A stretch of DNA of 64,000 bases, taken from IMG/VR virus record IMGVR_UViG_3300046315_000155; one strand, 5' to 3'. The notes beneath the pieces were generated by a model that ran no database searches, was not told where the DNA came from, and worked only from the letters and a program-made list of their open reading frames with translations. Positions 2,464 to 61,259 of this stretch are shown piece after piece; position 1 is the stretch's first letter, and each line of letters opens with the position of its first letter. This stretch comes from an uncultured virus (IMG/VR IMGVR_UViG_3300046315_000155) (lineage: Duplodnaviria; Heunggongvirae; Uroviricota; Caudoviricetes). The position numbers and the translations under genes were made by a program.

Positions 2464-3210
2464 ATGATTCACTTTGACATAACACTCAATCTTTATCAAT
2501 TTGATCAACCTCATCATAATATATATAAATCCCATACTGGTGCATTAACATATAATCAATTATTTGTAGATGATAAACTTTATGTACTCAATACAAAGAC
2601 TGGCAAAATTTATACCAATACTGTAGAACTAGATAAAATAAATCTATTAAAACAATATAATTTTTGTGCTGATAATGAAGGTAGATTTAATACAGGTAAA
2701 AATGGTCAAATTGTATATATTCATGAATTAGTATATGAAGTAAAAACTAATCGCAATTATGTAATCAATCATATCGACGGAGATCCTAGTAACAATATAT
2801 TGTCTAATTTGGAATTATGTACTCATTGGTTTAATACAGTGTTAATGAAGAAAAAATCTGGACTATCTATTGGTATAAGATATAATAATAGTGGTACTAG
2901 CTATCTAACAAAAATTGCCATGCCAAGAATACATGGCAAATGTATAAATTTTGGTGCCAAAGAACTTAATTACCTTCAAAATATTCACTATCAGTTCGGC
3001 ACTAAATCAGGTTTAGTTACACCAAAAAGATACCTCAAAGAAACTCCTAATTGGTTGCCAGATCATACTATCCAATTCTCACCAGACCATCAGATAAAAC
3101 TAGACCAATTAATTCAAGCGCATCTAGAAAATCAATCAACTTGGGATATACCTATTGAAGCTTATGTTAATAATATTAAATTACAAGGCTTAAAAAATGA
3201 CTCCATATAA
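2464..3210 (+). CDS. HNH(-AP2-like) endonuclease, repeat family copy 1
   Basis: VINHIDGDPSNN..SNLE HNH motif followed by an AP2-like SGL.IGI..Y...I.MP...INFG segment; at least 9 related copies in the window. Confidence 0.8.
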   Translation: MIHFDITLNLYQFDQPHHNIYKSHTGALTYNQLFVDDKLYVLNTKTGKIYTNTVELDKINLLKQYNFCADNEGRFNTGKNGQIVYIHELVYEVKTNRNYVINHIDGDPSNNILSNLELCTHWFNTVLMKKKSGLSIGIRYNNSGTSYLTKIAMPRIHGKCINFGAKELNYLQNIHYQFGTKSGLVTPKRYLKETPNWLPDHTIQFSPDHQIKLDQLIQAHLENQSTWDIPIEAYVNNIKLQGLKNDSI

Positions 3211-3386
3211 ATGGTCGTTTAGACAAATTATGTTTGGTTGGAGCGACTTTAAATATTCTCTAATTATTTGGAAAAACTTGATGTTCACTCCATATAATAT
3301 TATCACTACCGATAAATTTTTTTTTTATACTACTATGCAATTCTGGTGGTATGATGAACATTTTGATTAATTATTAAATTTAATAA

Positions 3387-3420
3387 AAAGACCTCCTAAA
3401 CTCAATTAGGAGGTCTTTTT
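3387..3420. terminator. bidirectional rho-independent terminator
   Basis: aaagacctcctaa-loop-ttaggaggtctttt; same hairpin family as the HNH-cassette terminators, next to the palindrome at 3371. Confidence 0.75.
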
Positions 3421-3592
3421 GATCTATTCAACTCTTCTTGCTCTCCACTTCTTGTAATGATTTAATTTTCCATTTGCTACATTTGTTAAATTTGCACTTG
3501 CATTCTTACCCAATTCTGGTGTTAATAAACAAAATTGCAATAAATTAGTGATATGGTGTTCTACTCCATTAGGAACGGTAAGTATATATTTT

Positions 3593-3880
3593 TTAGCCAT
3601 TAACTCTGATACTACTTTTTTCTGGTGTTCGCTTTGTGGTTTTGCGTTTGCTTTTCTGGTGGCAATTATCTTTGTTGAAGTTTTTTGTTCGGTCTTTACG
3701 ACACAATCTTAAATTTTCTGGGCATTTTCCCATGTCCTCGTAAAATGAGTCAAAATTTGACTTCCATCGCAGTTCTACTGATATACCCACAGCATCATAC
3801 ATATGATACTGTTTATGGTTTGTATCAAAACATATATCGTTCATTTTGTGATAATATGATTTTGTTCTTGTCCAAGGCAT
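3593..3880 (-). pseudogene. degenerate HNH-type endonuclease fragment
   Basis: GISV..RW...FDSFYEDMG..P....L.R.D...NF.KDNC is typical of phage HNH proteins; the similarity ends after DNC. Confidence 0.55.
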
Positions 3881-3972
3881 AATTTAATGAAAAAATAGAA
3901 CTAAGGTTTTTTACTTCCTTAGTTCTATTACAACAGATTTTACTTATTTTACAATAGGTTTAATAACGTGGG

Positions 3973-6397: not shown

Positions 6398-7189
6398 TTA
6401 AAAATTTTCTTGGTGCAAATACCCCCCTAAAATTGACCTTTTAGTATTTATTAAACGTTGTCCTCTTTCTAGATGATTTTTATCACTTCCTGGTTTACGT
6501 TGCAAAGATGCTAAAGATAATCTTCCACTCAGCATTCTTTTTTCTTCCCATTTTTCTTGTCCTTTTTTTATTTTAGCTATCCCTTCTTCTCGTTTTTCTG
6601 GAGTATTATTCCTTTTCATGTCATTAATTAATCTATTTTTTTCTTGATAAGATTTAATTTCATGATCTTCTAGTGGATGTAAGTATTTTTGTCCTCGTAA
6701 ATGTTCTTCTGGATGAACGTCTGGATGTTGTTTGACTATACCATACTGGGTTCGTCCATCTTTAGCTAAAGCACCAAATCCTGCTACTTTTCTATATATT
6801 TCCTCTCTTCTATTTCTTTCAGTCTTATCTGCTTTTGTAGCTGGATGATTAGTTACTAAATCTCCAATATTTGTATGGTTTTTAACATAATCATTATGTA
6901 AATGTAAAGCGTCATGTAATGTATGTTTTTTTTGTGTATTATTCATATTATTACGATCAATTAAATTGTTCCAGGACACATGGTGTGAAATATCAGATTG
7001 ACCAGGTGCTATTTTATCAGTTTCGTGGGATTGTGCAGCGTTATATTGGGTATGAACGGTGCTATTAAGTGAATGATATAGATTTCCTGTAGTTTTAACT
7101 TTTCGAGTTTCTATTGGTGAAGATGGTTCTTTGGATAACCCCTCACCTAACAAATAAAATTCTTGAATTTCTTGATATAAGTCTCTCAT
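6398..7189 (-). CDS. putative internal head protein, paralog of 62589..63392
   Basis: likely start MRDLYQEIQEFY; lies in the head operon; shares TLHDA.HLHN, AGFG, QYGIVK and HPEEH.RG.KYLHPLE blocks with the 62589 ORF. Confidence 0.55.
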   Translation of the reverse strand: MRDLYQEIQEFYLLGEGLSKEPSSPIETRKVKTTGNLYHSLNSTVHTQYNAAQSHETDKIAPGQSDISHHVSWNNLIDRNNMNNTQKKHTLHDALHLHNDYVKNHTNIGDLVTNHPATKADKTERNRREEIYRKVAGFGALAKDGRTQYGIVKQHPDVHPEEHLRGQKYLHPLEDHEIKSYQEKNRLINDMKRNNTPEKREEGIAKIKKGQEKWEEKRMLSGRLSLASLQRKPGSDKNHLERGQRLINTKRSILGGYLHQENF

Positions 7190-7199
7190 TTTATTAAAT

Positions 7200-7604
7200 T
7201 TAGTATTTATTATTTTCCCAATACTTAACACCGATCAATACTGCTAAAAAACATAAAGTAGCACGAAACCAATGAATCCCTGTTATATTCATCACCAATA
7301 AAAATAATAAATGACATTCAAACCAAGTTAGTTCATACATTGCTCCATCTATGCTTATAATTCTCCCCTTTTTAAAACATATATAGTCATGCAATAATGG
7401 TGCCACTAAACCTAGTGATGCTCTATCTATAATCCACCTTAATAATTTTGGTACAGATGCTAGATCGGATTTATAATTTTTTGGCACCACTATATCAAAA
7501 TTAAAATATTTACTGAAATTAATTACGTATCTGTCCTTTAAAATATAAATGTTTCCATCATTAGTACTTAATTGAGGAATTGGTAATACATTTTTATCAT
7601 TCAT
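7200..7604 (-). CDS. DUF1353-like protein
   Basis: VPKNYKSDLASVP...LLHDY motif. Confidence 0.7.
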   Translation of the reverse strand: MNDKNVLPIPQLSTNDGNIYILKDRYVINFSKYFNFDIVVPKNYKSDLASVPKLLRWIIDRASLGLVAPLLHDYICFKKGRIISIDGAMYELTWFECHLLFLLVMNITGIHWFRATLCFLAVLIGVKYWENNKY

Positions 7605-10379: not shown

Positions 10380-11078
10380 ATGGCTGAATTTAAAGAAAAA
10401 AAGTATAATTACCTCTACAAGACAACTTTAGAAGGGAGTAACGATTACTACGTCGGCAAGCATTCATCAGATAAAGACCCCACTAAAGATTCATATAAAG
10501 GATCTGGAAATTGGGTGAGATCTATAAAAAATAAAAAATTACTACATAGAACTGAACTTCAATTTTTTAATACAGCTATAGAATTAAAAAAGGCGGAAAA
10601 GTTATTAATTAAAGAAAATATAGGAAAACATGGTTGTAATAATATATCTCATGGAACAGCAGGAAGTCCGCCAGGAACTAATGCCAGAATCCCTAAGTCA
10701 GAAGAACATAGAAAAAAATTATCTGATGCCAGGACGGGAAAATTTTGTGGGGAAGATAATACTTTTTTTGGTAAAACTCATACAGAAGAATCTAAGAAAA
10801 AAATGTCCAATTCTGCAATGGGTAAAATTGGAAGTAATCATAATAGATTTGGAAAAAATCATACAGAAGAATCTAAGAAAAAAATTTCTGATGCAAGAAT
10901 TGGTAAATATAGTGGAGAAAACAATCCAAGAGCAATACTTAATAATATATCAGTAAAGGAAATAAAAATATTATTAAGAGATGGTCATACTTGTGTATAT
11001 ATTGCCAAACTTTATAATATCAGTCAGGGGGCGATATATGGTATTAAATATGGGAGAACATGGGCACATCATTCATAA
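10380..11078 (+). CDS. GIY-YIG homing endonuclease with NUMOD3 repeats and HTH
   Basis: YLYKT...YYVGKHS...YKGSG; repeated FGK.HTEESKKK.S; ends GRTWAH. Confidence 0.85.
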   Translation: MAEFKEKKYNYLYKTTLEGSNDYYVGKHSSDKDPTKDSYKGSGNWVRSIKNKKLLHRTELQFFNTAIELKKAEKLLIKENIGKHGCNNISHGTAGSPPGTNARIPKSEEHRKKLSDARTGKFCGEDNTFFGKTHTEESKKKMSNSAMGKIGSNHNRFGKNHTEESKKKISDARIGKYSGENNPRAILNNISVKEIKILLRDGHTCVYIAKLYNISQGAIYGIKYGRTWAHHS

Positions 11079-12058: not shown

Positions 12059-12770
12059 ATGAGTAGTAATATGATTCACTTTGATTCATTACTAAAATTA
12101 TGGCAGTTCGATCTTCCTCACCATAATGTAAATAATGGTAATTACAAATTAATATATAATCAATTATTTTTACATGACAAATTACATCTACTCAATATTA
12201 AATCTGGTACAATATATACTAATTCTATAGATCTTGATAAAGTAGATATTCTAAAACAATATAATTTTAATCTTGATAGTAGTGGTAGATTTAAGACAAG
12301 AACTGATAGTGCTAATACATATATTCATCAACTAGTATTTGGAGCGAAGACTAATGAAAATTATGTAATTAATCATTTAGATAGTAATGCTAGTAATAAT
12401 ATACGTTCCAATCTAGAACTATTGACTCAATGGTTCAACACAACAATAAAGAAAAAGTTTTCTGGTTTATTTATTGGGTTACAATATACTAATTATGTTG
12501 GTAGCTATGTGACACAAATCAGGATGCCAAAAGTAAATGGAAAAAGTATAAGTTTTGGTTCTAAAAATCTCAATTACCTTCAAAATATTCATTACCAATT
12601 TGCAACCAAATCAGGTTTAGTGTCCCCCAGAAAGATACTTACAAGAAGTACCTAATTGGTTGCCAGATCCTAATATTGTATTCACAGCAGAACATCAAAC
12701 AAAATTAGATCAATTAATTGAAGCACATCTAGAGAATCAAGCAACATGGGGTAAACCTATTCTGCTCTGA
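12059..12770 (+). pseudogene. HNH(-AP2-like) family copy 2, frameshifted near the C-terminus
   Basis: extra base in the C-run near 12625 (gtgtcccccagaaag); family sequence ERYLQEVPNWLPD...WGKPILL continues in another frame to TGA 12770. Confidence 0.8.
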
Positions 12771-12839
12771 GAGAGGTCTAGGATGCCTCACAACGCACGA
12801 AAACTATAATAATGACTACTAGTGTCAGAATATAAAAAT

Positions 12840-12870
12840 AAGCCTTTCTAGAGTCATCTAGAAAGGCTTT
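12840..12870. terminator. bidirectional terminator between HNH copy 2 and gp19
   Basis: aagcctttctaga-gtca-tctagaaaggctt. Confidence 0.75.
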
Positions 12871-12884
12871 ATTAAATTTAATAA

Positions 12885-13535
12885 TTAATTTGTAGTACTT
12901 GGTAGTACCTCGAAGTACTGGTACGCAAAAGTCACACTGTACTGCGAAATTTGGTTATTGAGTTCGTAACCAAGATCCATTCCAGATAAACTGGATACCC
13001 ATGCACCGTATAACCGATAACTTCTCAAAATCTTATCAGTAGCAGAACTAAATGAACTAGCATTTGCTGGTGTTCTCTCTGGAGCAACATTATCTCTACT
13101 CAATAAATGTAATGTAATATCTTGAATATAACTAATTTTGTTTGTACCCGATCCATTAGAATATCCTAATTCTGATACGTTTTCTGTCAACGCATTGATG
13201 CCTCTAGACCATGCCTCAAATCCTTTGCGTAATCTAAATTCACCATCATTAATTACAGTACAGGAAAAATTCTCAAAACTTCTGTCACCAGCTACTTTTA
13301 ATTCTCTTCCTCTAAATGGAACAGGAATTACTCCAATGTCCATACTAGGTATTTGTGCTGATTTAATCAAAAAACTAGCTGCTGTATTTAATGTTGCTGC
13401 TGATGCTGGTTTATCCCCAGTATTTCCTTTTAATGAATCAATTTGGGAGGGGAAGGACAGATCTACTCTGAACAAGTTGCTTCTAAAGCCACCAAGTAGT
13501 AATTGTGTCCGAAAGTCCATTATATTTAATGCCAT
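12885..13535 (-). CDS. gp19: tail tube protein
   Basis: GGFRSNLF.V, VPFRGRELKVAGDRSF, TVIND..F..R..FE.W, VTFAYQYFE. Confidence 0.95.
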   Translation of the reverse strand: MALNIMDFRTQLLLGGFRSNLFRVDLSFPSQIDSLKGNTGDKPASAATLNTAASFLIKSAQIPSMDIGVIPVPFRGRELKVAGDRSFENFSCTVINDGEFRLRKGFEAWSRGINALTENVSELGYSNGSGTNKISYIQDITLHLLSRDNVAPERTPANASSFSSATDKILRSYRLYGAWVSSLSGMDLGYELNNQISQYSVTFAYQYFEVLPSTTN

Positions 13536-13839: not shown

Positions 13840-14418
13840 ATGAAGTTATCTACTTACGCCTCTTCTCTTGGTATTTCCTACAAAACTGCTTGGCGTATGT
13901 GGAAATCTGGCACTCTATCCGCCACCCAACTCCCTACTGGTACTATTATTGTTCATCCACCTACCACTCCTACTAAAAATGCAGTTATATATACCAGAGT
14001 CTCTTCTTCTCAAAATAAATCTAATCTGGACACTCAAGTGGAACGCTTAGAATCCTATTGTTTATCAAAAGGTTATTCTATTGTTAAAATTATTAAAGAA
14101 GTTGGTTCTGGCGTTAATGACCATAGACGTAAATTTATTGACTTGCTTAATTCTGATAACTATGATATCATAGTTGTAGAACATAAAGATCGCCTTACTA
14201 GAGTTGGGTTTAATTATCTAGATGTTCTACTATCTAAACAAGGCAAATCTATTGATGTGGTTAATATTTGTACCGAACGTACTGATGATCTTATGCAAGA
14301 TTTTGTTAGCATTATTACTTCTTTCTGTGCTAGACTATATTCTATTCGTAGAAGAACTAGAAAATCTTGTCAAATTGTAAATATTATTAATTCTGATGAA
14401 ACTAACTCAACAACATAA
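13840..14418 (+). CDS. tnpA: IS607 serine recombinase transposase
   Basis: N-terminal MerR-like HTH, YTRVSS catalytic motif, EVGSGVN, VVEHKDRLTR.GF, ITSFCARLY. Confidence 0.93.
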   Translation: MKLSTYASSLGISYKTAWRMWKSGTLSATQLPTGTIIVHPPTTPTKNAVIYTRVSSSQNKSNLDTQVERLESYCLSKGYSIVKIIKEVGSGVNDHRRKFIDLLNSDNYDIIVVEHKDRLTRVGFNYLDVLLSKQGKSIDVVNICTERTDDLMQDFVSIITSFCARLYSIRRRTRKSCQIVNIINSDETNSTT

Positions 14419-15616
14419 GTTCTACTCTAATCATCCATTTTATTATGAGTTAGATTCTATTTGTTTCTTATCTAAGAATTTATATAACTATGCAAATTAT
14501 ATAATTAGACAATCTATATTTGCTGGTACTGGTTATCTTAATTATTACAAGATATTAAAGCTTGTTCAGGGTACTATTGATTATACTTCGCTTCCGGCGA
14601 AAGTGTCCCAACATGTCCTGATGGGTCTTGATAAAAATTGGAAATCTTACTTTCAGGCTATCAAATCTTTTACAAGCAATCCATCTAAATTTAATGCGTG
14701 TCCAAAAATTCCAAAATATCATAAAATTGAATCTGGTAGAAATGTAACTTCTTACTCTAATCAAGCTATTTCTAAGCGCAGCTTAACCAAGGATGGACTA
14801 CTTAATCCATCTGGTACCAATATATTTGTTCAAACAGATATCCCATATGAGAAAATCGATCAAGTTAGAATTGTGCCAAAATTGGAGCATTATGTAGTAG
14901 AAATAGTTTACGAAAAATCAATTGTTGATTTGAGATTAGACCAAGCAAACGTAGCAGCTATAGATTTAGGACTGAGTAATTTGGTTGCACTTACATTTAA
15001 TAAAATTGGAACTAAGCCAATGCTGTTAAGTGGGAATCCCCTAAAATCAATTAACCAATTTTTCAACAAGAGATTAGCGCAGCTACAATCAATCTTGAAA
15101 GGTGGTAGTAGTAAGAGGATCAGAAGGCTTTACAATAAGAGAGGAAACAAAATTAGTGATTATTTACATAAAGCTAGTACAACTATTGTAAGGACATTGA
15201 TAGAAAATGATGTGGGCACATTGGTAGTAGGTAAAAACAATGGATGGAAACAAAACATCAATATAGGGAGTAAAAATAACCAGAACTTCGTTCAAGTACC
15301 ATTTAATGATTTGATAGCCAAACTGCATTACAAATGTGAATTGGTAGGTATAAAATTTATCGAACAAGAAGAGAGTTATACAAGTAAAGCAAGTTTCTTA
15401 GATGCAGATTCAATTCCTACTTACAGTGCAGGTGTAAAACGCCAGTTCAGCGGTAGAAGACTGCAACGAGGGATATACAAAGCCAAGAGTGGTCTGAAAT
15501 TTAATGCAGACATAAATGGTAGTTATAATATCATGAGAAAAGCAATCCCAAACGTGTTCAGCAATGGGATAGAGGGTTTAGTAGTACACCCAGTAAGGAT
15601 AAAAACTTACAAATGA
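14396..15616 (+). CDS. tnpB: TnpB RNA-guided nuclease
   Basis: RuvC-I AIDLG, QEESYTSK, RuvC-III NADING; SKNLYN N-terminus typical of IS607 TnpB. Confidence 0.92.
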   Translation: MKLTQQHKFYSNHPFYYELDSICFLSKNLYNYANYIIRQSIFAGTGYLNYYKILKLVQGTIDYTSLPAKVSQHVLMGLDKNWKSYFQAIKSFTSNPSKFNACPKIPKYHKIESGRNVTSYSNQAISKRSLTKDGLLNPSGTNIFVQTDIPYEKIDQVRIVPKLEHYVVEIVYEKSIVDLRLDQANVAAIDLGLSNLVALTFNKIGTKPMLLSGNPLKSINQFFNKRLAQLQSILKGGSSKRIRRLYNKRGNKISDYLHKASTTIVRTLIENDVGTLVVGKNNGWKQNINIGSKNNQNFVQVPFNDLIAKLHYKCELVGIKFIEQEESYTSKASFLDADSIPTYSAGVKRQFSGRRLQRGIYKAKSGLKFNADINGSYNIMRKAIPNVFSNGIEGLVVHPVRIKTYK

Positions 15617-15816
15617 GTAGTAAAGACTTAAATGTCTATATTATTCGATACTATTTAGATTCTCGTAATAATACCTGGATGGCAACAATAATTGCAAATA
15701 AGACCAAGTACCGATTAGGAAGGTTTAAAACTGAAATTGAAGCAGCTAAAGCTTATGATGATGCTGCGAAAATACATCATAAACAATTTGCACACTTAAA
15801 TTTTCCTGATATCTAA
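15613..15816 (+). pseudogene. AP2 DNA-binding domain fragment (3' part of the IS607-interrupted gene)
   Basis: WMATI...K.RLGRFKTEIEAAKAYDDAA......FA.LNFP matches the AP2 consensus. Confidence 0.75.
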
Positions 15817-15894
15817 TATTATGCGCTGAGAGGGGTGTAGAATGCCCCTCAACGCATGATAACTAGAATAATGACTACTAGCATCTAATACAAT

Positions 15895-17919: not shown

Positions 17920-17954
17920 TTTATTATACTTATTGTTATTACTATTATTTATAT

Positions 17955-18254
17955 TTATAAATTGTCTGTATATACTTTAGTCAAGTTAGATATCATAAAT
18001 AACAATTTTTCTTTTGCTTCTTCTGCGCTTATAAAAAAGTACTCGCCTTCTTTTCGTTTTAAATTAAAATACTGATGCAGTGACTTTTCTATTTTGGTTG
18101 CGTTATATATCGGTTCAGTATGATAGTATAGTTCTAGTTTGCATCCAGAACTGCACTCAAGTTGCCTTAGTCTGCGAGGAATGTTGTTGGTGACTCCTAT
18201 TTTTATTAAATTTAATAATTCATTAAAGATAATATAAACCTGTTTTTTTTGCAT
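17955..18254 (-). CDS. T5orf172/GIY-YIG-like domain protein
   Basis: VYII...IKIGVT.N..RRL.QL...IEK.LH..F...R.EGEYF. Confidence 0.75.
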   Translation of the reverse strand: MQKKQVYIIFNELLNLIKIGVTNNIPRRLRQLECSSGCKLELYYHTEPIYNATKIEKSLHQYFNLKRKEGEYFFISAEEAKEKLLFMISNLTKVYTDNL

Positions 18255-18293
18255 TTATGTGTTATAATTATTATATACTTTATATTGGTAAAA

Positions 18294-18698
18294 ATGATCC
18301 ACTTCTGCAAAACATTAAATCTCTATCAGTTCAATCTGCCTAATCATAATGTAGATAATGGAAAATAAAAATTAAAATTAACATATAATCAATTATTTAT
18401 AGACGATCTATAAATAATTGTTAGTGGCGGTAGTTATCTAACAAATATTGCTATGCCAAGAAAAAATAGTAAAGCTATGACTTTTGGTTCTAAATATATA
18501 AATTACTTACAAAACATACATTATCATTTTGCAGTAAAGTCAGGATTAGTTACTCCAGAAAGATACCTCAGAGAAGTTCCTAATTGGCTACCCGATTCTA
18601 CCATACAATGCTCACCAAAACATCAAACAAAATTAGATCAATTAATTGAAGCACATCTAGAGAATCAATCTACTTGGGAGCAGCCAATTATACTCTGA
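18294..18698 (+). pseudogene. HNH family copy 3, internally deleted
   Basis: MIHFCKTLNLYQFNLPNHNV start and C-terminal ERYLREVPNWLPD...WEQPIIL are kept, the HNH core is missing; TGTGTTATAAT promoter at about 18258. Confidence 0.8.
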
Positions 18699-46507: not shown

Positions 46508-46960
46508 TATACAAAAATATGACCTTCTAATTGATTTTTAGAAGGTCATATTTTTATGATTATGACACTAGCACTCGTATTTATAGTTATCGTGCATTGT
46601 GGGGCATTCCAGACCCCTCTTAGAATCTAATAGGCTTATCCCAAGATGCCTGATTTTCTAAATGTGCTTCAATTAATTGGTCTAGTTTATTCTGCTGTTC
46701 TAGTGAGAATTGGATAGTAGAATCGGGCAACCAGTTAGGAGTTTCTTTGAGGTATCGTTCTGGAGACACTAATCCTGATTCTGTACCAAACTGAAAATGA
46801 ATATTCTGGAGGGAATTAAGATCTTTAGAAGTAAAATTTATTTGCTTACCATTTACTCTTGGCATAATAACTTGTGTTTTATAGCTACTGCCATTGGCAT
46901 ATGTTATATTTATCGAAGTTTTGCCATACTAATAATAAACGATATAATCATTATAACATA
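46505..46960 (-). pseudogene. HNH family copy 7, internally deleted, inverted, with promoter, 3' tail and terminator
   Basis: 46620..46865 encodes the family C-terminus; TATGTTATAAT at about 46950-46960 (minus strand); tail and hairpin at 46505-46620. Confidence 0.8.
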
Positions 46961-48434: not shown

Positions 48435-48518
48435 ATTTTTATATGTTGCCATATTTTATTTTTATTTATATTGCGTATAAATATTATTACTCAAACACTT
48501 ATCCAAGCAAAAATAAAA

Positions 48519-48797
48519 ATGGCAAGAAAAAAAGAACTGGAAAACTCTTTTCAATCGAATCCGCTCCTAAAAAGAATTGGTGTAGACATAGAATTTGATG
48601 AGGATAATGTAAACGAATTTATGAAGTGCAAAAAAGATATAAATTATTTTGCAAATAATTACATCAAAATCGTTACATTGGATAAAGGGTTGACAAATAT
48701 AAAACTTTATAAATATCAGGAAAAATTGCTGAAGACGTTTGACCGCAACCGCTTCGTTGTCGTTAAGTATCCTTTTTTGTCCCCGATTGCCGCATAA
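48519..48797 (+). CDS. gp17: terminase large subunit piece 1a (N-terminus, homology to KYP at 48773)
   Basis: NP.LKR....EF.....EF.KC..D..YFA.NYIKIV.LD.GL....LY.YQEKL...F..NRF...K.P matches the gp17 N-terminus; ATG 48519. Confidence 0.88.
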   Translation: MARKKELENSFQSNPLLKRIGVDIEFDEDNVNEFMKCKKDINYFANNYIKIVTLDKGLTNIKLYKYQEKLLKTFDRNRFVVVKYPFLSPIAA

Positions 48798-48829
48798 TCA
48801 ATAAACTGGTTAGCTAATATTGGGGACAA

Positions 48830-48940
48830 CCTCGTCAAAGCGGGAAATGTGTTACAGGTGACACCGCAATCACCATCAAAAACCGAATTACCGATGAAGT
48901 AAAAATTATAACTATTGCAGAATATTTCAACTCCATATAG
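48830..48940 (+). CDS. gp17: terminase piece 1b: Walker A PRQSGK plus 30-aa split-intein N half, in a different frame and with no start codon
   Basis: hand translation PRQSGK/CVTGDTAITIKNRITDEVKIITIAEYFNSI*; in-frame TAA upstream at 48815. Confidence 0.85.
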   Translation, partial: PRQSGKCVTGDTAITIKNRITDEVKIITIAEYFNSI

Positions 48941-49043: not shown

Positions 49044-49382
49044 ATGTTAAATAGTGTAATATGTGTTAATTGTAATAACTTCTATGACAAATATAATTTA
49101 AGATTTCATGTTAAATCTCATGGATATCAAAATTTATCAGATTATAAAAAATTTCATAATATATATATATATCAAAAGAAATCAAAAGTATGTGAATATT
49201 GCAACAGGGAATTCGTACCAATTAAAAAAAAACAAACTTTGCGCGAATGGTGCATTGCATTTAATCTAAGCTACAATACAATACATTCCAGATATAGACA
49301 AGGTTGGGTAGTCCCTAAATTATTTAGTTCAATAAAAAGGAAAAAAATAGAAATTGGTGAGTTTTTTCGTGATTTATCTTGA
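49044..49382 (+). pseudogene. Zn-finger / endonuclease remnant
   Basis: C..C...H...H and CEYC motifs plus a QTL.EW....N..Y.TI..R...GW tail of phage HNH-type proteins; no nuclease core. Confidence 0.5.
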
Positions 49383-49432: not shown

Positions 49433-49639
49433 ATGATTGACAAACAACTGGCAGAAAATATCTTTAAACTACTCCTAGCAAGTGAAATCGCATATTACGA
49501 AGATGATCTACCAGCTAAGAGTGCAGCACAACAAGCAACAGCAATGGTAGAGTTTTTTAATGTGCTACAACCAACATTAAACAAAGAAGAACTAAAACAG
49601 ATGGACAGACTGCGAGAATATCTTCCCAAACACCGCTAG
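49433..49639 (+). CDS. hypothetical protein
   Basis: 68-aa ORF after the promoter. Confidence 0.55.
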   Translation: MIDKQLAENIFKLLLASEIAYYEDDLPAKSAAQQATAMVEFFNVLQPTLNKEELKQMDRLREYLPKHR

Positions 49640-49683
49640 AATGCCCTACAACGCACGAAAATTAATTTTTTGAGGAAAGCATC

Positions 49684-50115
49684 ATGATTGAAAAAATAAC
49701 CAAATTAAAAGAAAACTTCGCCACATTTGAACAAACATACGGCAGGTTGATGAGAAATACAGATGAAGATGGATACGAGTTTTGTGCAGAAGGAATTTTA
49801 GGACTTACTGCTGGTCTTGACATCAAAATTCATCCAGAACATAACGTCTCCATGTTTTGTATTAATGGGGTATATCTATATTTGAATATTCCTCATAATA
49901 TCTATGATAATTTAGATTTGCCGTTGCTTATATCTACATCAAAATTAATAGGATGGGGGGAACAATTAAAGTTGACAAAAAAGCAAATTAAGGCTATTAT
50001 GCAGGAAGGCGAACAAATTTGTTGGGCATCTTTGAACGATGGGGTCAGATTAACTTTTTCCCAATTTATTTTACTGCTGGACATTCTGGACAAACTATAT
50101 ATATATCATGATTAA
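49684..50115 (+). CDS. hypothetical protein, tandem paralog 1 of 4
   Basis: shared K...LKENFA..Q...L...CAEG.L...L.LP...L.LT..Q...W..LND...LTF.QF.LLLD. Confidence 0.7.
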   Translation: MIEKITKLKENFATFEQTYGRLMRNTDEDGYEFCAEGILGLTAGLDIKIHPEHNVSMFCINGVYLYLNIPHNIYDNLDLPLLISTSKLIGWGEQLKLTKKQIKAIMQEGEQICWASLNDGVRLTFSQFILLLDILDKLYIYHD

Positions 50116-50515
50116 TAAATTAGAACAATTAAAAGAGAATTTTGCCAAATATGAACAAGGATTTTGTAAATTAGTGACTGGCGAATGCCTGTGTGCAGAG
50201 GCTATTTTGGCTATATCTAATGGTTTAATTATCAAAAAACAATATTCATTTTCTGACGATATGGTTTACGAAGAAGAAAATAGTTGCTATTTTGAGTTTT
50301 CTATACCCAGCTACCATTATACAGAGTTAAATTTACCCAAATATATAACAAAAATTGAACTTCTTTGGTGGGCAAAAAAATTACAACTAACTTCGAGACA
50401 AATAGATATGCTACAAAGTCTTAATTCTCTCATTTCTTGGGCAAATCTAAACGATATTGTCAGATTAACCTTTCCACAATTTATTTTACTGCTGGACATC
50501 CTGAACAAATTATAG
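50108..50515 (+). CDS. hypothetical protein, tandem paralog 2 of 4
   Basis: same family motif. Confidence 0.7.
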   Translation: MINKLEQLKENFAKYEQGFCKLVTGECLCAEAILAISNGLIIKKQYSFSDDMVYEEENSCYFEFSIPSYHYTELNLPKYITKIELLWWAKKLQLTSRQIDMLQSLNSLISWANLNDIVRLTFPQFILLLDILNKL

Positions 50516-50532
50516 ATAGATATATATATATC

Positions 50533-50943
50533 ATGATTAATAAATTAGAACAATTAAAAGAGAATTTCGCCAAATATAATCAATATCACCGAAGATTGGT
50601 GTCTCTTGATGGGTGTTCTCTATGTGCTGAAGGGGTATTAGCAATTACTGTGGGGGGAACAATTGCTAATGTTCCTATGCACAATAATATAAAAATGATA
50701 CTATTGGATGGAGGATACTATTATAGTACTATACCTGGCAGTGTGTATCAACAATTAAATTTACCCAACCCCATTCCTAAAACTTTATTATTAACTCATC
50801 AAAAACAATTAAAATTAACAAAATTTCAAATTGTTAGCATTAATAAAGAATTTGATTCATTTTTTTGGCATGATATTAATGATTATATTAACTTAACCTT
50901 CTCCCAATTTTCTTTGCTGCTAGATTTATTGAATGAACAATAA
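50533..50943 (+). CDS. hypothetical protein, tandem paralog 3 of 4
   Basis: same family motif; start ATG 50533 (MINKLEQLKENF). Confidence 0.7.
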   Translation: MINKLEQLKENFAKYNQYHRRLVSLDGCSLCAEGVLAITVGGTIANVPMHNNIKMILLDGGYYYSTIPGSVYQQLNLPNPIPKTLLLTHQKQLKLTKFQIVSINKEFDSFFWHDINDYINLTFSQFSLLLDLLNEQ

Positions 50944-51012
50944 ATATGCTCCCCCTACTAGTTCTAGAGTGTCCCTCAAGTCACATAAACTAATTTTTTT
51001 GAGTAAATTATC

Positions 51013-51437
51013 ATGATTAACAAATTACAAGAACTGAAAGACAACTTCGCAAAATATAAACAAGGGTTTTGTAGTTTGGTTGATAAAAATGATCAAACTT
51101 GCCTATGTGCAGAGGGAATACTAGGAATTACTACTGGGTATTCTATTAAGAAGAATGAGGACAATGGAATGAATTCTTTGTATTTTAAATGGAGATATTA
51201 TTATAATAATATCTCTGATAAGGCATATACAGAATTAAACTTGCCAGAATTTATATCTGGTGAGTTTTTATTAAAATATCAAACAGAATTAGAATTGACT
51301 AAAAAACAAGTGAAGTGAAGTGGATTAGTGACCCCAAAAAAAGACATAGTTGGTTTATTTTAAATGATATGTTGAAATTATCATTCCATCAATTTTGTCT
51401 ATTGTTAGATATCTTAAACACATCATACATACACTGA
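51013..51437 (+). pseudogene. tandem paralog 4 of 4, frameshifted by a 5-nt duplication
   Basis: gtgaagtgaagtgg at about 51310; removing one tgaag restores ...WFILNDMLKLSFHQFCLLLDIL... Confidence 0.7.
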
Positions 51438-51609
51438 GGGGGGGTCTAGAATGCCCTGTAAGGCACGATAATTTAAATAATCACTACTAGTACCAAATCA
51501 TAAAAATAATGACCTTCTAATTGATTTTAGAAGGTCATTTATTAAATTTAATAATTACACGCATGATAACTATAAATATGAATATGAATAAAAGTATCAA
51601 ATTTATTAA

Positions 51610-54600: not shown

Positions 54601-56916
54601 ATCAGAATATACAATGATGAAGTTAAATTCCCTTCACCAAATAATAAAATTTATCCATATTTGGCAAAGGTGGATAATATTAGCTATGGGGCAATAGATG
54701 ATTACCTAATAGAGATTCCTGGTATTAATTATGCAGTAGGAGATATTATAAAATTTGAAGATGTTAATATAAAAATAATCGTTTCAGCAGTATCTAATAC
54801 TGGTGGGATTATTGGAGTAAACATAATTGATAACGGCATTAATTTAGAATCCATCCCACCACATACTATATTATCACAATATGGAGTTGGTGCAGTTATT
54901 ATATTTCGTAGTGATACTATTGGAACTATTAAAAATATTAAAAATATTACCAATGGAGATGGGTTTGGTGGCGACCCTACTATAAATTATTCAGTGGATA
55001 GTGATGTGATTTTAGATATTAAATTTAATAATACCATCACCGATTTTATAATTATCACTAATGGTATTGGCTATACTGAAAATTCTGTAGTATTAAATAA
55101 TCAGTTTTCTGCTAGTTTAGTGGTTGCTAATAGTGTTATTAGTAGAATTGACATTATTGAAAGTGATAATTATTTTGAAAGTATTCCTATTGTTTCTATA
55201 TCAATTGGTATTGGTGCAACTATCATTCCAATATTAAGCAAATCTGATATCAATACCAGTATTGTTTATTATGGATTAACTAGAAATAATTATGTGGCAA
55301 AGGGTAAAATTAATTTATATAATAAAATTGCTTCGACTTTGCAAGTGAAATCATTATTTGGAAAATTTGTAGTGAATAATGATTATTTTTTGTGGGATGA
55401 ATCTGGACGAAAAATTGGTAAAATTCATAATGTCCGTACAGCAGAACTAATTTGTACTCCAACCAGCAACAAAACTATTCAAGATTTTACTGATAATTTG
55501 GATAGTATTATTACTTCTAATAATGTGATCGCAGACAACCTTACTCATCAACAATATTCTTATTCAATAAAATCCCCACATTCACTAATAGAATGGAAAA
55601 ATTTTGTGGTGGATAATGTACATATGCTCGGTAATAAGATATACAGCATATACAGCATAGATAATATAGTGAAGATGTACCTACATAGAGAGACACAGAT
55701 CAACAATGTTATTGACTATAAGATCAATATCGAGAATATTTTAAGTATATTAGCCGAAAAAAACGAAACTGATTTCGTTATTAATATCGATTCATTACCA
55801 GAAGATCTATACAAAAATACTAAATTCAAAAAACAATATTTCGACTACATTTGGAATGATAATGATTATGTTCACAGCAACTACTCGTCCTTTATCAATT
55901 ATGATTACGGAGATCTAGTATGGCTGACAGAAAATCATAACAGATTGATATTAGAAAAAATTAATTCTAATACCGTATTGGCAACTGACTATAGTATTAT
56001 TAAATTTAATAATTTGGTTAGTAGGATTGCCAGTAATTCAATTTTGTACATCAATGGAGTTACACAACATCCATCTTATGATTATTCGGTGGCTAACAAT
56101 AACGTAACTATTCATCAAACAATAAATGATTTGAGTGACCGGGTCTCTATACTCAACCTACCGAGTTCATTTTTAACTTATACGGACAAAAAAGTATTAA
56201 CGAACTCCAATACTACCACACTCACCACAAATACTAACCTTTTTGTCCCTGTAGATGTTTCAAAATTGATTATGTTTGTAAATAATGTACCAAATAATGA
56301 ATTTAGTATTGTTGGTAATAATGTTGTCTTTACACAAAATATTACTGGTACGGCATATGGGGTCTATAGTGATAATTTTACTGCATTAAATTTAGTCAGC
56401 CTTACCAATAAAATCTATACCATTACCAATAACCCCACTAATAGAAACATAATACTATTTGTAAATGGAGTTATCCAACCATCTGCAAATTATACTACTA
56501 CTAGTACAACACTTACTGTTAATTCTACTGATTTTATTACTCATTTGAGTGCTTGGATCGTTGATGATACTATTGGAGTAGATGATGTATATTCTATTGT
56601 ATATAATAGTAATAATGATAAAGACGTGATCCCCGCTGAATTCAAATTTAATATTGTTGGGGGCGAATTGACTGGCGTTGATATTGTGTATGCTGGATTG
56701 CATTATCCCCGCTACATGATGTTAGCGGTAGAGGGGGTTGCTGACCCTGCTAAGATCTTATTAGAATGTTTGAACGGTAGTATTGTTAGAGCAAAAATTA
56801 TTGATGCTGGTAGTGGGTTAACTAATACCAACTATACTACAAAATTGTACTATTATGGGCAAATTGAATCTGAACATTATTGTATGATCGAGTCTGATGT
56901 TTCTATTATTGTTTAA
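51610..56916 (+). CDS. baseplate wedge initiator-like large structural protein (gp7-like) with a YHYH-type segment
   Basis: LP....E.YPKFV.F..EYY.SQE, SKGT.ES.K.LFKLLF, repeated I.N.G.GY motifs, HSPIIGWAFDG.PIYG...FIEDYEY...LDEYNG...TPEFP.G. Confidence 0.78.
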   Translation: MKVTSSLTVSSLLPDHIVESYPKFVQFIEEYYKSQEQPLGNLDLMNNLIEYYNIQNYKIQDLTDKQNLILDQFRYKYLGNLPQKLNPKINYSTLIPHIKDFNTSKGTEESIKTLFKLLFDDTTTKIKVLLRGSGAVVLLEVLNGSVATATIINGGSGYNNNFKPTIDVIGAGTDAVLQIDNIVAGVITAVSIVNPGTLYNNNNNVVILERDFDINSIVTGSISGAKGKITYWNPDINELYLNETDKSFRIGESITSTNCTAVINNIDITTEEPSVILPYEYTIKTNSDNSVYSEILLELNDTTTNFEQIRSEKNIVLTQNKISIYTSDLSVVYRDNERVIVKIITDKNNSLYVPPTTKLIPIVGTDIIVDSTIGFPTAGTVSLNGEYINYTSKTINKLIGITRNVLIPGTQNYSMVGEDVVKLYRIYSDNQYRTATVELSSGNKKCQFSVISSGSGAVILDGASGYKNDSIFDSISPITKDATEYNVWSNIYGIYDTDDYMYITADGKPVSTTNTRSFSEQTILKRFIKNNIVEPSPTNKGIGLTTNGVEICSYKGATIDYGNLTNIDIISNGDDYFLPNRINESIPELYVNTQNYSNIIKIYGSLKRITLDGISQDLLSGYNKKPEVIVTRNINDVTGIDMELEVDYDVSGVINGIIIKNPGKWYTEIPEIKIVNGGKYLTPLTIPTTNVYISGFVGKYYFLPTELSDVDFDPINYKSLAIPNTDVYSATPEVYLKSGSGVVFSIVVELGVIVSVSVENSGINYFTSPELKVINTTGSGAKFSVNVEFGRVVSVEVINGGSSYFNNPTLVVNYFPNSAVFAATINSWTYNIANNAPIDSTGGYVYNQGDSGVGESNLPDTNFSPQYLQLVHIEPVRTVHSPIIGWAFDGVPIYGAYVDAPRGGVDKLYSSWTLKITTSTNRPTAPLGTFIEDYEYIGGVLDEYNGVFAYTPEFPEGRYCYFATDAFPYFVGNQYKYKFDSYNHLKLQNNCNIPSGSIRIYNDEVKFPSPNNKIYPYLAKVDNISYGAIDDYLIEIPGINYAVGDIIKFEDVNIKIIVSAVSNTGGIIGVNIIDNGINLESIPPHTILSQYGVGAVIIFRSDTIGTIKNIKNITNGDGFGGDPTINYSVDSDVILDIKFNNTITDFIIITNGIGYTENSVVLNNQFSASLVVANSVISRIDIIESDNYFESIPIVSISIGIGATIIPILSKSDINTSIVYYGLTRNNYVAKGKINLYNKIASTLQVKSLFGKFVVNNDYFLWDESGRKIGKIHNVRTAELICTPTSNKTIQDFTDNLDSIITSNNVIADNLTHQQYSYSIKSPHSLIEWKNFVVDNVHMLGNKIYSIYSIDNIVKMYLHRETQINNVIDYKINIENILSILAEKNETDFVINIDSLPEDLYKNTKFKKQYFDYIWNDNDYVHSNYSSFINYDYGDLVWLTENHNRLILEKINSNTVLATDYSIIKFNNLVSRIASNSILYINGVTQHPSYDYSVANNNVTIHQTINDLSDRVSILNLPSSFLTYTDKKVLTNSNTTTLTTNTNLFVPVDVSKLIMFVNNVPNNEFSIVGNNVVFTQNITGTAYGVYSDNFTALNLVSLTNKIYTITNNPTNRNIILFVNGVIQPSANYTTTSTTLTVNSTDFITHLSAWIVDDTIGVDDVYSIVYNSNNDKDVIPAEFKFNIVGGELTGVDIVYAGLHYPRYMMLAVEGVADPAKILLECLNGSIVRAKIIDAGSGLTNTNYTTKLYYYGQIESEHYCMIESDVSIIV

Positions 56917-57114
56917 TATGCCCTGGGAGGGGTCTAAAATGCCATGTAGCAGGTCTTAATTGAAATAATGACCACTAGCATCAAATCATAAAAATAATGA
57001 CCTCCTAATTGATTTTTAGAAGGTCATTATTAAATTTAATAATTTAGAATTTGGTGGTGGTATTTTGCGCCAATATATGTTAGTATGATAATGCTGTCTT
57101 TATCATTAATTTTT

Positions 57115-57922
57115 ATGACCAACAGAACCCCTAAAAAATATAACTATTTGTATGAAACTATCCTAGTGGGTAGTGATAAGAAATATTACGGTATGCACTC
57201 ATCAGACAAACATCCAGATAATGATCCTTATTTGGGATCTGGTAAATGGGTGAAGTCTATTAAAGATAAGAATCTATTGCGACGAACAATACTTTCTTAC
57301 TATGACACCATAGAAGAATTGATGATAGCAGAGACGGAATTGATCGCCGAACATTTGCACAAACCATATTGTATGAATTTTTCGCCAATTTCTGGTGGTG
57401 GTAACGGGTTATCTGGTGAAAATCATCCTAATTTTGCAAAAGATTTTTCCACATCAACAAGGAAAAAAATGTCTGATTCTCATATCGGTAACACTCCATC
57501 AGAAAAAACTAAACAAAAACTATCAAATTGCAAAGTTGGTAGTAATAATCCCATGTATGGAAAATTTGGGGAAGAACATCCTTTGTATGGATATAAACAC
57601 ACGCAGCAAACTAAGAAAAATATGTCTGCTTCTCAAAAGGGAAAAACTTTATCAGAAGAAGCGAAGAAACATTTATCAGTTGTTATGGCTGGGCGAATTT
57701 TTACCGACGAACATAAAAAAAACTTGTCAGTTTCTTTGTGTGGCGAAAAGGCACCACATGCAAAGTTAAATGAACAACAAGTGCGAGAAATAAAAGTATT
57801 ACTAAGAGATGGGTTTACTGGAGTATATATATATATATATATCAAAAAAATATAATGTTCATAAGGCTACTATTAATGATATAAAGTTAGCAAAAACCTG
57901 GAAGCATGTTATAATATTATAA
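57115..57922 (+). CDS. GIY-YIG endonuclease with NUMOD3 repeats; C-terminal HTH frameshifted at a (TA)n tract
   Basis: YLYET...YYGMHS...YLGSG; ORF stops at 57855, while the HTH tail ...AKTWKHVIII continues in another frame to 57922. Confidence 0.8.
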
Positions 57923-58835: not shown

Positions 58836-59336
58836 ATGACTAAACCTAGAATTTCCAACCCAAGTAATCATTGGACGACACCAAAATATTTCTACGATCA
58901 ATTAGTTGATGTACATGGTGAAATGTTTGATGTTTGCCCCATAAATGAAGTAATCACGCCAGAAAATGATGCACTAATCGTCCCTTGGAAAAAAGTTAAT
59001 TTTGTCAATCCTCCATACAGCAAAATAGAAAAAGAAGCATTTGTTATGAAGGGGTTAGCAGAATGGCAAATTAATGGTAATAAATCTGTATTTCTACTTC
59101 CTGTCAGCACGTCTACCAGACTTTATCACCATGTAATTAAACCTCATGCTAGTCAAATTCTATTCATAGAAGGCAGACTAAAATTTGAAGGTATTGGTAA
59201 GATTAAAGTTAATGGTGTACTACAACCCGCCCATATCAATCCTGGCACTGGTATAAATTCTATCCCCAACACAGAACATCTACCAAAAGCTAAAAACTCA
59301 GGTACTTTCGACTCAATGGTGGTAGTATTTGGTTGA
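58836..59336 (+). CDS. phage DNA N6-adenine methyltransferase (Dam-like family)
   Basis: WTTP..F...L....F.D.CP, FVNPPYS catalytic motif, L.P..T.T, GRLKF. Confidence 0.85.
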   Translation: MTKPRISNPSNHWTTPKYFYDQLVDVHGEMFDVCPINEVITPENDALIVPWKKVNFVNPPYSKIEKEAFVMKGLAEWQINGNKSVFLLPVSTSTRLYHHVIKPHASQILFIEGRLKFEGIGKIKVNGVLQPAHINPGTGINSIPNTEHLPKAKNSGTFDSMVVVFG

Positions 59337-59370
59337 CATTTCTCACCATTTTTGTTATAGGGGATTAATT

Positions 59371-60075
59371 ATGATACATTTCTGCAAAATACTCAATTTC
59401 TATCAGTTCGTTCAGCCTCATCATAATATAAATAATGGATCTTGTAAGCCATTAACATATAATCAATTATTTGTAGACGATCTACTACATCTGCTCAATA
59501 CTAATACTGGTAAATTATATACTAATTCTATCGATCTTGATAAAGTAGATCTTCTTAAACTATATAATTGGTGTCCTGACAATAAAGGTAGATTTCTAAC
59601 ATATAAAAATGGACAAACTGTAAAAATTCATGAATCTGTATATGGTGCAAAGACTAATAAGAATTGGGTGATCAATCATATAAATGGCGATCCTAGTAAT
59701 AATACAAGATCTAATTTAGAATTAGTCACTAATTGGTTCAACACCGCAATAATGAAGAAGTCATCTGGACTTCCTATTGGTATACTGTATCATCATGGTG
59801 ATAGTAGCTATCAAACACAAATTGCTATGCCAAGAGTAAAGAAACAAATAAATTTTGGTTCTGAAGATCTTAACTATCTTCAAAACTTGCACTACCAATT
59901 TGCTATTAAATCAGGTTTAGTATTGCCAGAAAGATATCTATTATCAGTCCCAAACTGGCTACCAGATCATACTATCCTATTCACTCCAGAACATCAATCA
60001 AAACTAGATAAATTAATTGAAGCACATCTAGCTAATCAAGCAACTTGGGAACAACCTACTCCACTCACTCACTAA
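59371..60075 (+). CDS. HNH(-AP2-like) family copy 8
   Basis: intact family member; ATG 59371. Confidence 0.82.
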   Translation: MIHFCKILNFYQFVQPHHNINNGSCKPLTYNQLFVDDLLHLLNTNTGKLYTNSIDLDKVDLLKLYNWCPDNKGRFLTYKNGQTVKIHESVYGAKTNKNWVINHINGDPSNNTRSNLELVTNWFNTAIMKKSSGLPIGILYHHGDSSYQTQIAMPRVKKQINFGSEDLNYLQNLHYQFAIKSGLVLPERYLLSVPNWLPDHTILFTPEHQSKLDKLIEAHLANQATWEQPTPLTH

Positions 60076-60219
60076 TTATTAAATTTAATAATCATGTCAA
60101 TTCCTACATTCAAGAGTGTAATAATCTTATGGAAGGAATGACGCTAGAAGAACAACAATCTATGTGTGACAATGTTACTAAAGTATTAGTCAATTATTAT
60201 TCATCTCTTTCGCCAAAAT

Positions 60220-60564
60220 ATGACTCAACAAATCTATCAACTCATTAAACAAATCAATCTCGAAGATACGATTTACTCAATAAACATAAACAATCAAGAC
60301 AATAATTACCTAAGATCAATCAATCTCGAAGATTATATTTGCGTAGTCCCTTCTGTCCAAGAAATTGTAAATTATGTAATCACTAATATGGTTCTTGAAC
60401 TATACCATACCACTAAATCTTTCCCCAAATCTACTCAAATATCTTACAGATTAGAATGTGACGACGATAAAGAATCTCCTATTGTCTGGAATGCTGGTAT
60501 GCCGCCTCATTGCCATTTATGCTTACCTACTATCCTTTATTTGCGAATGAGACAAACTGTATGA
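60220..60564 (+). CDS. hypothetical protein
   Basis: 114-aa ORF between HNH copies 8 and 9. Confidence 0.5.
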   Translation: MTQQIYQLIKQINLEDTIYSININNQDNNYLRSINLEDYICVVPSVQEIVNYVITNMVLELYHTTKSFPKSTQISYRLECDDDKESPIVWNAGMPPHCHLCLPTILYLRMRQTV

Positions 60565-61259
60565 TTCATTATACCAACACTACTAATAAATGGGAATTCG
60601 ATCTACCTCATCATAATGTAAATAAAAGTAATTATAAATTAATTTTTAATCAATTGTTTGTAGATGAAACTTTACATGTACTCAATACTAATACTGGTAG
60701 ATTATATACTAATACTATCGATCTTGATAAAGTAGATCTATTAAAACTATATAATTGGTGTCCGGATTGTGAAGGCAGATTTAGTACAAAGAAAAATGGA
60801 AAAAATGTAAAAATTTATGAATTAATAGTTGGATTGAAGACTAATCAAAATTGGGTGATCAATCATATAGATGGCGATCCTAGTAATAATACAAGATCTA
60901 ATTTAGAATTAGTGACAAATTGGTTCAATATAGCATTAATGAAAAAGTCATCGGGACTTCCTATAGGTATAAAATATAATCGTGGTGGTACTAGCTATCA
61001 AACAATAATCCGTATGCCAAGAATACATGACAAATTTATAAATTTTGGTTCAAAAGATCAGAATTGCCTTCAAAACATTCATTATCAGTTTGCCACTAAA
61101 TCAGGGGTAGTATCTCCCGAACGATACCTCAAAGAAGTACCTAATTGGTTGCCTGATTCTACTATACAATTTACTCCAGAACATCAATCAAAACTAAACC
61201 AATTGATCGAAGCACATCTAGAGAATCAACTTACTTGGGATGCCCCGATTATGTTCTGA
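60561..61259 (+). CDS. HNH(-AP2-like) family copy 9
   Basis: intact family member; ATG 60561. Confidence 0.82.
   Translation: MIHYTNTTNKWEFDLPHHNVNKSNYKLIFNQLFVDETLHVLNTNTGRLYTNTIDLDKVDLLKLYNWCPDCEGRFSTKKNGKNVKIYELIVGLKTNQNWVINHIDGDPSNNTRSNLELVTNWFNIALMKKSSGLPIGIKYNRGGTSYQTIIRMPRIHDKFINFGSKDQNCLQNIHYQFATKSGVVSPERYLKEVPNWLPDSTIQFTPEHQSKLNQLIEAHLENQLTWDAPIMF

Follow-up and report, generated by a model that had tools for sequence, protein, structure and literature searches.

Results

An HNH gene family dispersed over the window

We analyzed a 64,000-nucleotide stretch of DNA (here called the window) from an uncultured virus of the Caudoviricetes (IMG/VR record IMGVR_UViG_3300046315_000155), over which a family of HNH endonuclease genes and an associated 75-nt repeat, the tail, are dispersed. 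The window has a GC content of 32% and spans the region of a T4-like myophage genome devoted to structure and packaging, with PHROGs matches for major head, portal, sheath, tube, baseplate, terminase and DNA polymerase proteins; the nearest named capsids are those of cyanophages, at 57-58% identity. An original prediction from the letters of this sequence had listed nine copies of an HNH-AP2-like cassette with a shared promoter-bearing leader, open reading frame (ORF), tail and terminator, landing between structural genes. By tblastn, nine of nine copies were recovered where they had been placed, the full-length ones with E-values near 1e-100, far beyond chance. All window copies are intergenic, lying between ORFs, and they occupy gaps between replication genes as well as between structural genes.

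For comparison, the window was extended to about 156 kb through virus records matching at 99.9-100% identity (phage A). Three further virus records (G003-G005; 119 kb in total) were treated as one related phage (phage B), to which they probably belong because their gene content is complementary and their GC content similar; A and B have a median protein identity of 55% over 77 reciprocal best hits. Phage D is a 6.6-kb record (G015) with about 76% DNA identity. Reads of the phage are present in 24 freshwater DNA datasets, and no RNA dataset is among those listed.

Five of the nine loci carry intact ORFs, with mutual amino acid identities of 66-73%. Features are on the plus strand unless stated otherwise, and codons and residues are numbered by the 232-aa protein of the 20386 copy. 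The gene at 2464-3210 (248 aa; HNH_3 E-value 1.3e-6) has neither leader nor tail. The gene at 20386-21084 (232 aa) lies 5' of the middle terminase piece and is followed by a tail and a terminator hairpin (21072-21189). The copy at 35772-36568 comprises a leader, ORF 35807-36535 (242 aa) and a tail (36493-36568) with a TAAATA motif before the gp25 homologue. The gene at 59371-60075 (234 aa) follows a Dam methylase gene and lacks a tail, and the copy at 60561-61282 combines an intact gene (60561-61259, 232 aa) with a partial tail.

The copy at 12059-12767, 3' of a phosphoesterase gene, is frameshifted as predicted, with its homologous start at 12071 and a change of frame near 12625, and ends in a tail and a terminator-like hairpin (12758-12888). 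Three copies are internally deleted, as described. That at 18258-18751 comprises leader, codons 1-40, codons 143-232 (81-aa ORF, 18453-18698) and tail; the inverted copy, on the minus strand at 46504-46960, comprises leader, codons 133-231 (81-aa ORF, 46620-46865), tail and terminator. The third (gene start at 29704; whole copy 29667-30030), flanked by gp14 and gp15 homologues, is not a clean deletion: between its leader with codons 1-24 and its codons 212-232 with a TAAATA-bearing tail lie about 130 nt of foreign DNA. The nuclease core tends to be lost from such copies; the inverted copy has a leader without recognizable N-terminal codons.

The four modules are likewise shared less widely than described. 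A full tail is present at six of the nine copies, a partial one at 60561 and none at 2464 and 59371. The exact leader precedes three copies (at 18258, 29667 and 35772) and a near-exact one lies at 46960; its core, TGTGTTATAAT, also occurs upstream of unrelated genes. The terminator hairpin is found 3' of the tail at three copies (12071, 20386 and the inverted copy), and no intact copy has all four modules. The prediction had also overlooked five tails without a gene: at 15817-15890, directly 3' of the stop codon of an unrelated AP2-domain remnant (ORF 15613-15816); at 49635-49664, a partial tail consisting of the core only; at 51434-51545, with a terminator before a large baseplate gene; at 56914-57031, with a terminator and beginning at the stop codon of the baseplate gene; and at 62456-62572, with a terminator and 3' of ORF 62060-62446. 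Phage B has an intact copy before the homologue of the gene downstream of 51434 and another after the homologue of ORF 62060-62446.

Over the whole of phage A, a family profile identified 14 loci with coding remains. Three minimal relics with a few HNH codons next to a leader or tail were seen by eye (A 75187, 85240 and 110662, the last a 19-codon mini-ORF downstream of an intact leader), giving 17 traces, of which 6 are intact and 11 broken. The relics are nested, retaining from 173 down to about 7 codons. Phage B has 12 loci, nine of them intact, or 11 loci if two pieces located at the ends of contigs are halves of a single copy; two weak profile matches in other genes (21.7 and 9.9 bits) are excluded. 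A database protein, P0007, has 207 residues identical to the 2464 copy and its last 55 identical to the 35807 copy; it comes from one 1-kb contig and may be an assembly chimera, and was therefore left out of the counts.

The encoded protein

The copies are free-standing genes for HNH endonucleases of the HNN type, which probably include an AP2-like domain. The protein has about 232 residues, matches HNH_3 in 33 of 33 family members and contains the invariant residues N103, H104, N111/112, N116 and N125. Searches of Pfam and PHROGs matched HNH families alone; no transposase domain (DDE, HUH, serine or tyrosine recombinase) was among the matches of the copies. The sole sequence match in the PDB is an HNH homing endonuclease, I-HmuI (1u3e; weak, E-value 0.017, about 60 residues), with which the HNN-type motif and the preceding hairpin align. 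At the position of the I-HmuI Asp that precedes the His, these copies have Asn.

A structure model places strands at residues 67-80, before the motif, and three strands followed by a helix at 140-180, after it. When residues 130-232 were used in a fold search, AP2 domains ranked 1st (6sy0; Z 3.6, root-mean-square deviation [rmsd] 3.7, 58 residues aligned), 4th (2gcc; Z 3.3, rmsd 3.4, 56 aligned) and 13th, with low Z-scores throughout and a model of predicted local distance difference test (pLDDT) score 52. An Atlas structure search gave a template modeling (TM) score of 0.56 to a plant AP2 cluster. Pfam AP2 was matched by none of the 33 members, a profile comparison of the family with the window's own AP2 remnant was negative, and fold searches with the whole protein returned nothing clear. 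An AP2 identity of the C-terminal domain is plausible, if not proven.

The family is narrow. A word-indexed search collected 42 proteins, and a further search gave 10 representatives at E-values below 1e-10; annotated phages gave no match to the HNH protein, none of 144 candidate stretches in cellular genomes was confirmed, and a metagenome scan returned only two distant HNH matches. In 26 loci surrounding distant major-capsid relatives, each locus of at most 21 kb, neither the tail nor the HNH gene was detected.

Site turnover between phages and grouping of copies by genome

Occupied and empty sites were compared between the related phages. A comparable junction exists in B for seven of the nine window sites, and five of these are empty there (18294, 29704, 35807, 46504-46960 and 59371); at the others, B has a frameshifted copy before the same terminase piece (20386) and a tail only (12071). 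One B site is cleanly empty in A. At the 29704 junctions, D carries a full-length copy with four stop codons at exactly the same junctions, so that the 29704 copy has decayed in place. Several sites are common to A and B, and part of the spread is therefore old. Contigs from four read runs over 17700-37600 were uninformative: paralogues cross-map, and no joint skipping a whole copy was among those listed.

Intact copies are 66-77% identical within A, 68-79% within B and 53-62% between A and B. They split by genome, not by site (support of 98 in a Shimodaira-Hasegawa-like approximate likelihood ratio test on a quick tree), and this grouping holds even at two sites common to both phages, so that either copies have been homogenized within each genome or the same sites have been hit twice. 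The closest pairs, at 77% in A and 79% in B, include no near-identical young copies. A run test was significant over all polymorphic sites (p=0.0005 in A, 0.01 in B) but not over silent ones; gene conversion among the copies is likely, though unproven. Two A copies have an identical 50-nt stretch across the hairpin, a hint that modules may be swapped between copies.

Recurrent diversification of predicted DNA-reading residues

The ratio of nonsynonymous to synonymous substitution rates (dN/dS) averaged 0.39 over 15 pairs in A and 0.36 over 36 pairs in B, indicating purifying selection overall. Variability was compared per site among A (7 copies), B (10 copies) and a third clade of 13 database proteins, the regions concerned having first been spotted by eye in an alignment with all groups. 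It was correlated among the three sets (Spearman 0.52-0.62), and 12 of 228 positions (25, 73, 77, 79, 86, 98, 129, 140, 147, 151, 159 and 217) were hypervariable in all three, against 1.7 expected. Eight of the 12 belong to the hairpin that precedes the motif or to the sheet that follows it, where they alternate with invariant positions; K, R, Q, N and Y account for 104 of the 162 residues found at nine strand positions. The 12-residue code differs in all 18 copies, and among 16 near-full ones at most 5 of the 12 residues are held in common.

At 18 strand sites picked from the third clade alone, the ratio of nonsynonymous to synonymous polymorphism (pN/pS) was 1.99 in A and 1.37 in B, in comparison with 0.33 and 0.32 at 186 sites not hypervariable in that clade. 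Site models (M1a/M2a) favor positive selection (p=0.004 for 6 copies in A, 1e-10 for 9 in B), computed with our own code on star trees and subject to inflation by recombination; the selected sites in B include 77, 80, 86, 147, 149 and 159. The hypervariable strand residues may read DNA, as suggested by the modeled fold and by analogy with I-HmuI (PMC3428280, PMC3943268), for which specific DNA contacts near the N terminus are described (PMC3428280). As a separate observation, synonymous differences at conserved residues are low in codons 64-88 (0.09 in A, 0.08 in B) relative to four other regions (0.14-0.32 in A, 0.20-0.25 in B), yet hypervariable residues lie in 64-88.

Diversified reading heads under overall purifying selection, in 6 intact A and 9 intact B copies, would also be expected of a domesticated nuclease arsenal against competing phages or satellites, in which an arms race and not homing drives diversification; a nuclease derived from a homing endonuclease gene and domesticated against a satellite, Odn, is a precedent (PMC10448857). 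Such a role is compatible with homing. As an explanation of the family it appears very unlikely, however: the 11 broken copies among 17 traces in A, the D full-length copy with four stop codons and the turnover of sites between phages are what selfish genes predict.

Ends and putative flanking promoters

The copies showed no fixed ends and neither terminal repeats nor a target duplication. There is no constant boundary: 5' junctions lie at the ATG in some cases and as much as about 40 nt before it in others, and 3' ends differ between A and B. The A copies mostly have a tail at the 3' end. Among 11 B copies with a 3' end, seven have TTGACT at the stop codon, five of these with a -10-like box at promoter spacing, and two have a tail. 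Terminal direct or inverted repeats were within the shuffled null in five of six copies, the sixth showing a 9-nt AT-rich match, with no close empty allele compared. Most copies that oppose the flow of transcription have a TGTGTTATAAT-type promoter, and promoter-less copies are co-oriented with the upstream gene.

The view of a self-spreading mobile element in the original prediction holds insofar as copies have spread to many intergenic sites, but a transposon-like unit with defined ends is unsupported, given the absence of terminal repeats, target duplication and fixed ends. A true transposable element, whose HNH protein would act on its own ends, copy leader, ORF and tail to new sites and mobilize deleted copies and solo tails in trans in the manner of miniature inverted-repeat transposable elements (MITEs), could account for the high copy number, both orientations, nested deletions with both ends (including the A 110662 mini-ORF) and the sharp left edge of solo tails. 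We nevertheless regard it as highly improbable. Besides lacking, in five of six cases, terminal and target repeats above the null, the copies have ends that differ between A and B and include no near-identical young members, and the 29704 copy decayed where it stood; moreover, a protein binding its own ends should conserve its DNA-reading residues, not diversify them. The retention of ends by deleted copies would be explained more simply by promoters that neighbors need, since the tail can carry a predicted late promoter for the next gene.

Foreign DNA inside the 29704 copy and beside two B pieces resembles IS200/IS605 ends, so that other elements may help to break the gene.

The tail repeat

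The tail is a 75-nt repeat with the core TAGAATGCCC, present 34 times in A, six times in B and once in D, and never in three shuffles. Of 30 strong A tails, 9 follow coding remains and 21 are solo. A terminator is an optional addition. TAAATA, the core of the T4-type late promoter, is found in 14 of the 34 A tails. In the 35 nt that separate gp6 from gp25, B has a TAAATA-like motif on each strand; the A cassette lies between the two, and its tail supplies the gp25 motif. Between gp14 and gp15, a TAAATA-like motif precedes the downstream gene in B and is supplied by the tail in A. From these motifs, the tails that carry them may act as late promoters for the next gene. No sigma70 -35/-10 pair was seen in the tail profile. 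A conserved RNA hairpin was considered and rejected, as only 2 of 10 tails fold better than shuffles; there is no Rfam match anywhere in the window.

The positions of tails are related between the phages. Among 77 orthologous genes, six are followed by a sense copy or tail in B, and A has one after all six, versus 9 of the 71 others (p=2e-5). Solo tails in A follow four of four orthologues that B follows with a full copy, versus 6 of 68 others (p=2e-4), though those four B copies have no tail. This co-occurrence is compatible with ancient sites common to both phages from which A has lost the ORF; alternatively, a few tolerant sites may have been used repeatedly.

A different origin of the tail would be as an independent dispersed regulatory repeat that spreads by recombination, like the PeSL elements of T4-like phages, with the HNH gene hitchhiking or landing upstream and solo tails never having been full copies. 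The 21 strong A tails without coding trace, many beginning at a stop codon, speak for this, as do tails after unrelated endonuclease genes (15613 and B3 52776), inverted tail pairs (A 75084/75187 and B4 2539/2640), the frequent TAAATA motif and the precedent of promoter-terminator repeats shuffling T4-like genomes (PMC2839356, PMC4122927). We consider it unlikely: in three minimal relics, a leader or tail adjoins a few remaining HNH codons, solo tails in A mark the genes that carry full copies in B, and no RNA fold is conserved. In wider searches, the tail pattern gave 23 scattered single matches in cellular genomes, about the chance level by our estimate, and 12 stretches in viral contigs, two of which are GC-rich, core-only matches in records without an HNH gene.

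Other elements of the genome

The large terminase gene is in three pieces on both strands (48471-48900, plus; 21250-23661, plus; 18751-19974, minus), with the same split in B. The pieces look joined by atypically split inteins, similar to AceL-TerL, and the middle piece has a LAGLIDADG intein. The first piece contains a stop codon and frame change inside the Walker A region (about 48770-48830); the same interruption, in near-identical sequence, is present in B (L022 of G005, about 660-730), which supports a conserved feature and not an assembly error.

Within 124.5 kb of A there are 44 occurrences of a perfect palindrome, TATTAAATTTAATA (10 of them inside long ORFs), against none in 20 shuffles; it marks starts and ends of transcription units (in the window, for example, 3372, 7607, 12038, 21186, 35721, 47621 and 60077). 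B has only three sites in 119 kb. Eight near-identical terminator-like hairpins are present in A (3390, 21158, 46521, 51511, 56999, 62541 and two beyond the window), and none was found in B by the same pattern.

The genome is rich in other homing-endonuclease-like genes and remnants (441-1097, 10380-11078, 57085-57855, 38663-38890, 17955-18254, 23702-24742, 3593-3880 and 49044-49382), including phrog_314 (three with NUMOD3 repeats), T5orf172 and HNH-HTH groups. An IS607-like pair (resolvase and TnpB/OrfB; 13840-15616) adjoins an AP2 remnant left by another HNH gene, which B has in full. Beyond the window lie a second TnpB-like gene and an RRXRR-like fragment. A second small family (6398-7231, 62589-63392, A 112134 and three in B) has a common acidic N-terminal leader and no Pfam or PHROG match; its members possibly encode internal head proteins that carry a capsid-targeting sequence. 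In B, what fills the gap between gp14 and gp15 is a remnant of the first codons of this family. Small unknown ORFs form tandem paralogues at 49684-51318 (four copies) and 61680-62446 (two copies), and a repeat protein with 330-340-nt repeats is encoded at 30868-33183. The non-coding DNA at 63400-64000 and in L004 beyond, with 100-190-nt repeats and CGATCG-rich motifs, is possibly an origin or control region.

Discussion

Paralogy, turnover of sites, a conserved core with diversified strands, a decay series and regulatory motifs in the flanks were all observed directly in this family. We think it fairly probable, on sequence comparisons, that these copies constitute a free-standing HNH homing-endonuclease family that spreads by rare ectopic repair, is retargeted and decays. 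The family would have multiplied within one phage lineage, each intact protein nicking, in a co-infecting genome without the copy, a long target close to the protein's own site, after which recombination repair would copy the gene across (intronless homing). New sites would be reached rarely, through illegitimate repair between genes, and a new copy would persist only if its DNA-reading residues changed to suit the new neighborhood, which would place those residues under positive selection. Copies that oppose the direction of transcription would bring their own early-type promoter, and the 3' end would provide the next gene with a promoter or terminator, making the copies tolerable among essential genes. 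When all empty alleles had been filled, the gene would decay by deletion, with the flanks staying because neighbors use them; most solo tails would be the end state of this decay or have spread among sites by recombination.

Several observations weigh against this interpretation. The run test restricted to silent sites is not significant (p=0.24 in A, 0.37 in B). The three best-supported selected sites in A (5, 114 and 185) lie off the strands, the site-model result may be inflated as stated above, and the structure model is of low confidence over the HNH core (pLDDT <50 at residues 91-137). For ten of the 21 solo tails, the start is no more than 12 nt away from a stop codon on the same strand and there is no coding trace, a pattern sharper than random decay suggests. 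Finally, the comparison base consists of two long relatives and one short contig at a median protein identity of 55%. A bolder proposal, a self-mobilizing element of a new kind, would have the HNH nickase open new intergenic sites by changing a few DNA-reading residues or swapping them between copies, carry a replacement promoter that makes its landing among essential genes harmless and mobilize the 75-nt tail in trans like a MITE, rewiring transcript boundaries at more than 20 further sites; from the sequence data, this seems quite unlikely.

Multi-copy, dispersed and decaying HNN-AP2 genes have already been published (PMC2248197, PMC2993671). The Xanthomonas phages Xp10, OP1 and Xop411 have 7, 6 and 8 HNH genes, for which self-duplication was proposed; like the genes described here, they are dispersed, vary in position between phages and include degenerate copies without an HNH domain (PMC2248197). 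That study found no conserved flanks (PMC2248197), whereas leader and tail are conserved here and the tail also occurs alone; copies are more numerous in the present family, whose protein has an additional helical part at the C terminus and does not match Pfam AP2. Several HNH genes with AP2-type architecture, of the HNH-AP2 and IPA-HNH kinds, also lie near essential genes in the T4-like phages RB16 (6 HNH-AP2 genes) and RB43 (3; PMC2993671 Table 5) and in ICP1 (3; PMC10448857). Unlike those, the phage studied here has 17 traces of one family with 53-79% identity; shared flanks or site-specific diversification of paralogues are not described in the passages on RB16, RB43 and ICP1 (PMC2993671, PMC10448857).

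The T4 mob and seg genes are similarly intergenic, intronless and promoter-less or promoter-bearing; MobA and MobE nick, and embedded promoters for downstream genes favor retention of endonuclease DNA (PMC2988022). The five T4 mob genes have distinct C-terminal regions, whereas the present copies use a single scaffold and vary its surface residues. I-HmuI, in contrast to the present genes, is intron-encoded and single copy. PeSL cassettes are repeated intergenic promoter/terminator motifs able to recombine and combine an early promoter with a stem-loop in hyperplastic regions (PMC2839356, PMC4122927); the tail, by contrast, sits among core genes, with a late-type motif in 14 of 34 cases and without a conserved fold. 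The present family differs from these precedents in its scale, in having flanks that are conserved and tails that stand alone, and in diversifying repeatedly in the same pattern. In the open-access literature on the expansion of paralogues, their concerted evolution and positive selection among phage HNH genes, supplements excluded, we found no description of this pattern.

The routes by which free-standing homing endonucleases reach new sites and specificities have mostly been inferred from distant, unrelated genes. Here, 15 intact paralogues in two phages have one scaffold, known insertion sites and about a dozen differing surface positions. They provide a ready panel to address whether specificity tracks the neighboring sequence and to approach the recognition code of an HNH nickase. 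The tail suggests, in addition, that the flank of a selfish gene can become a genome-wide regulatory repeat.

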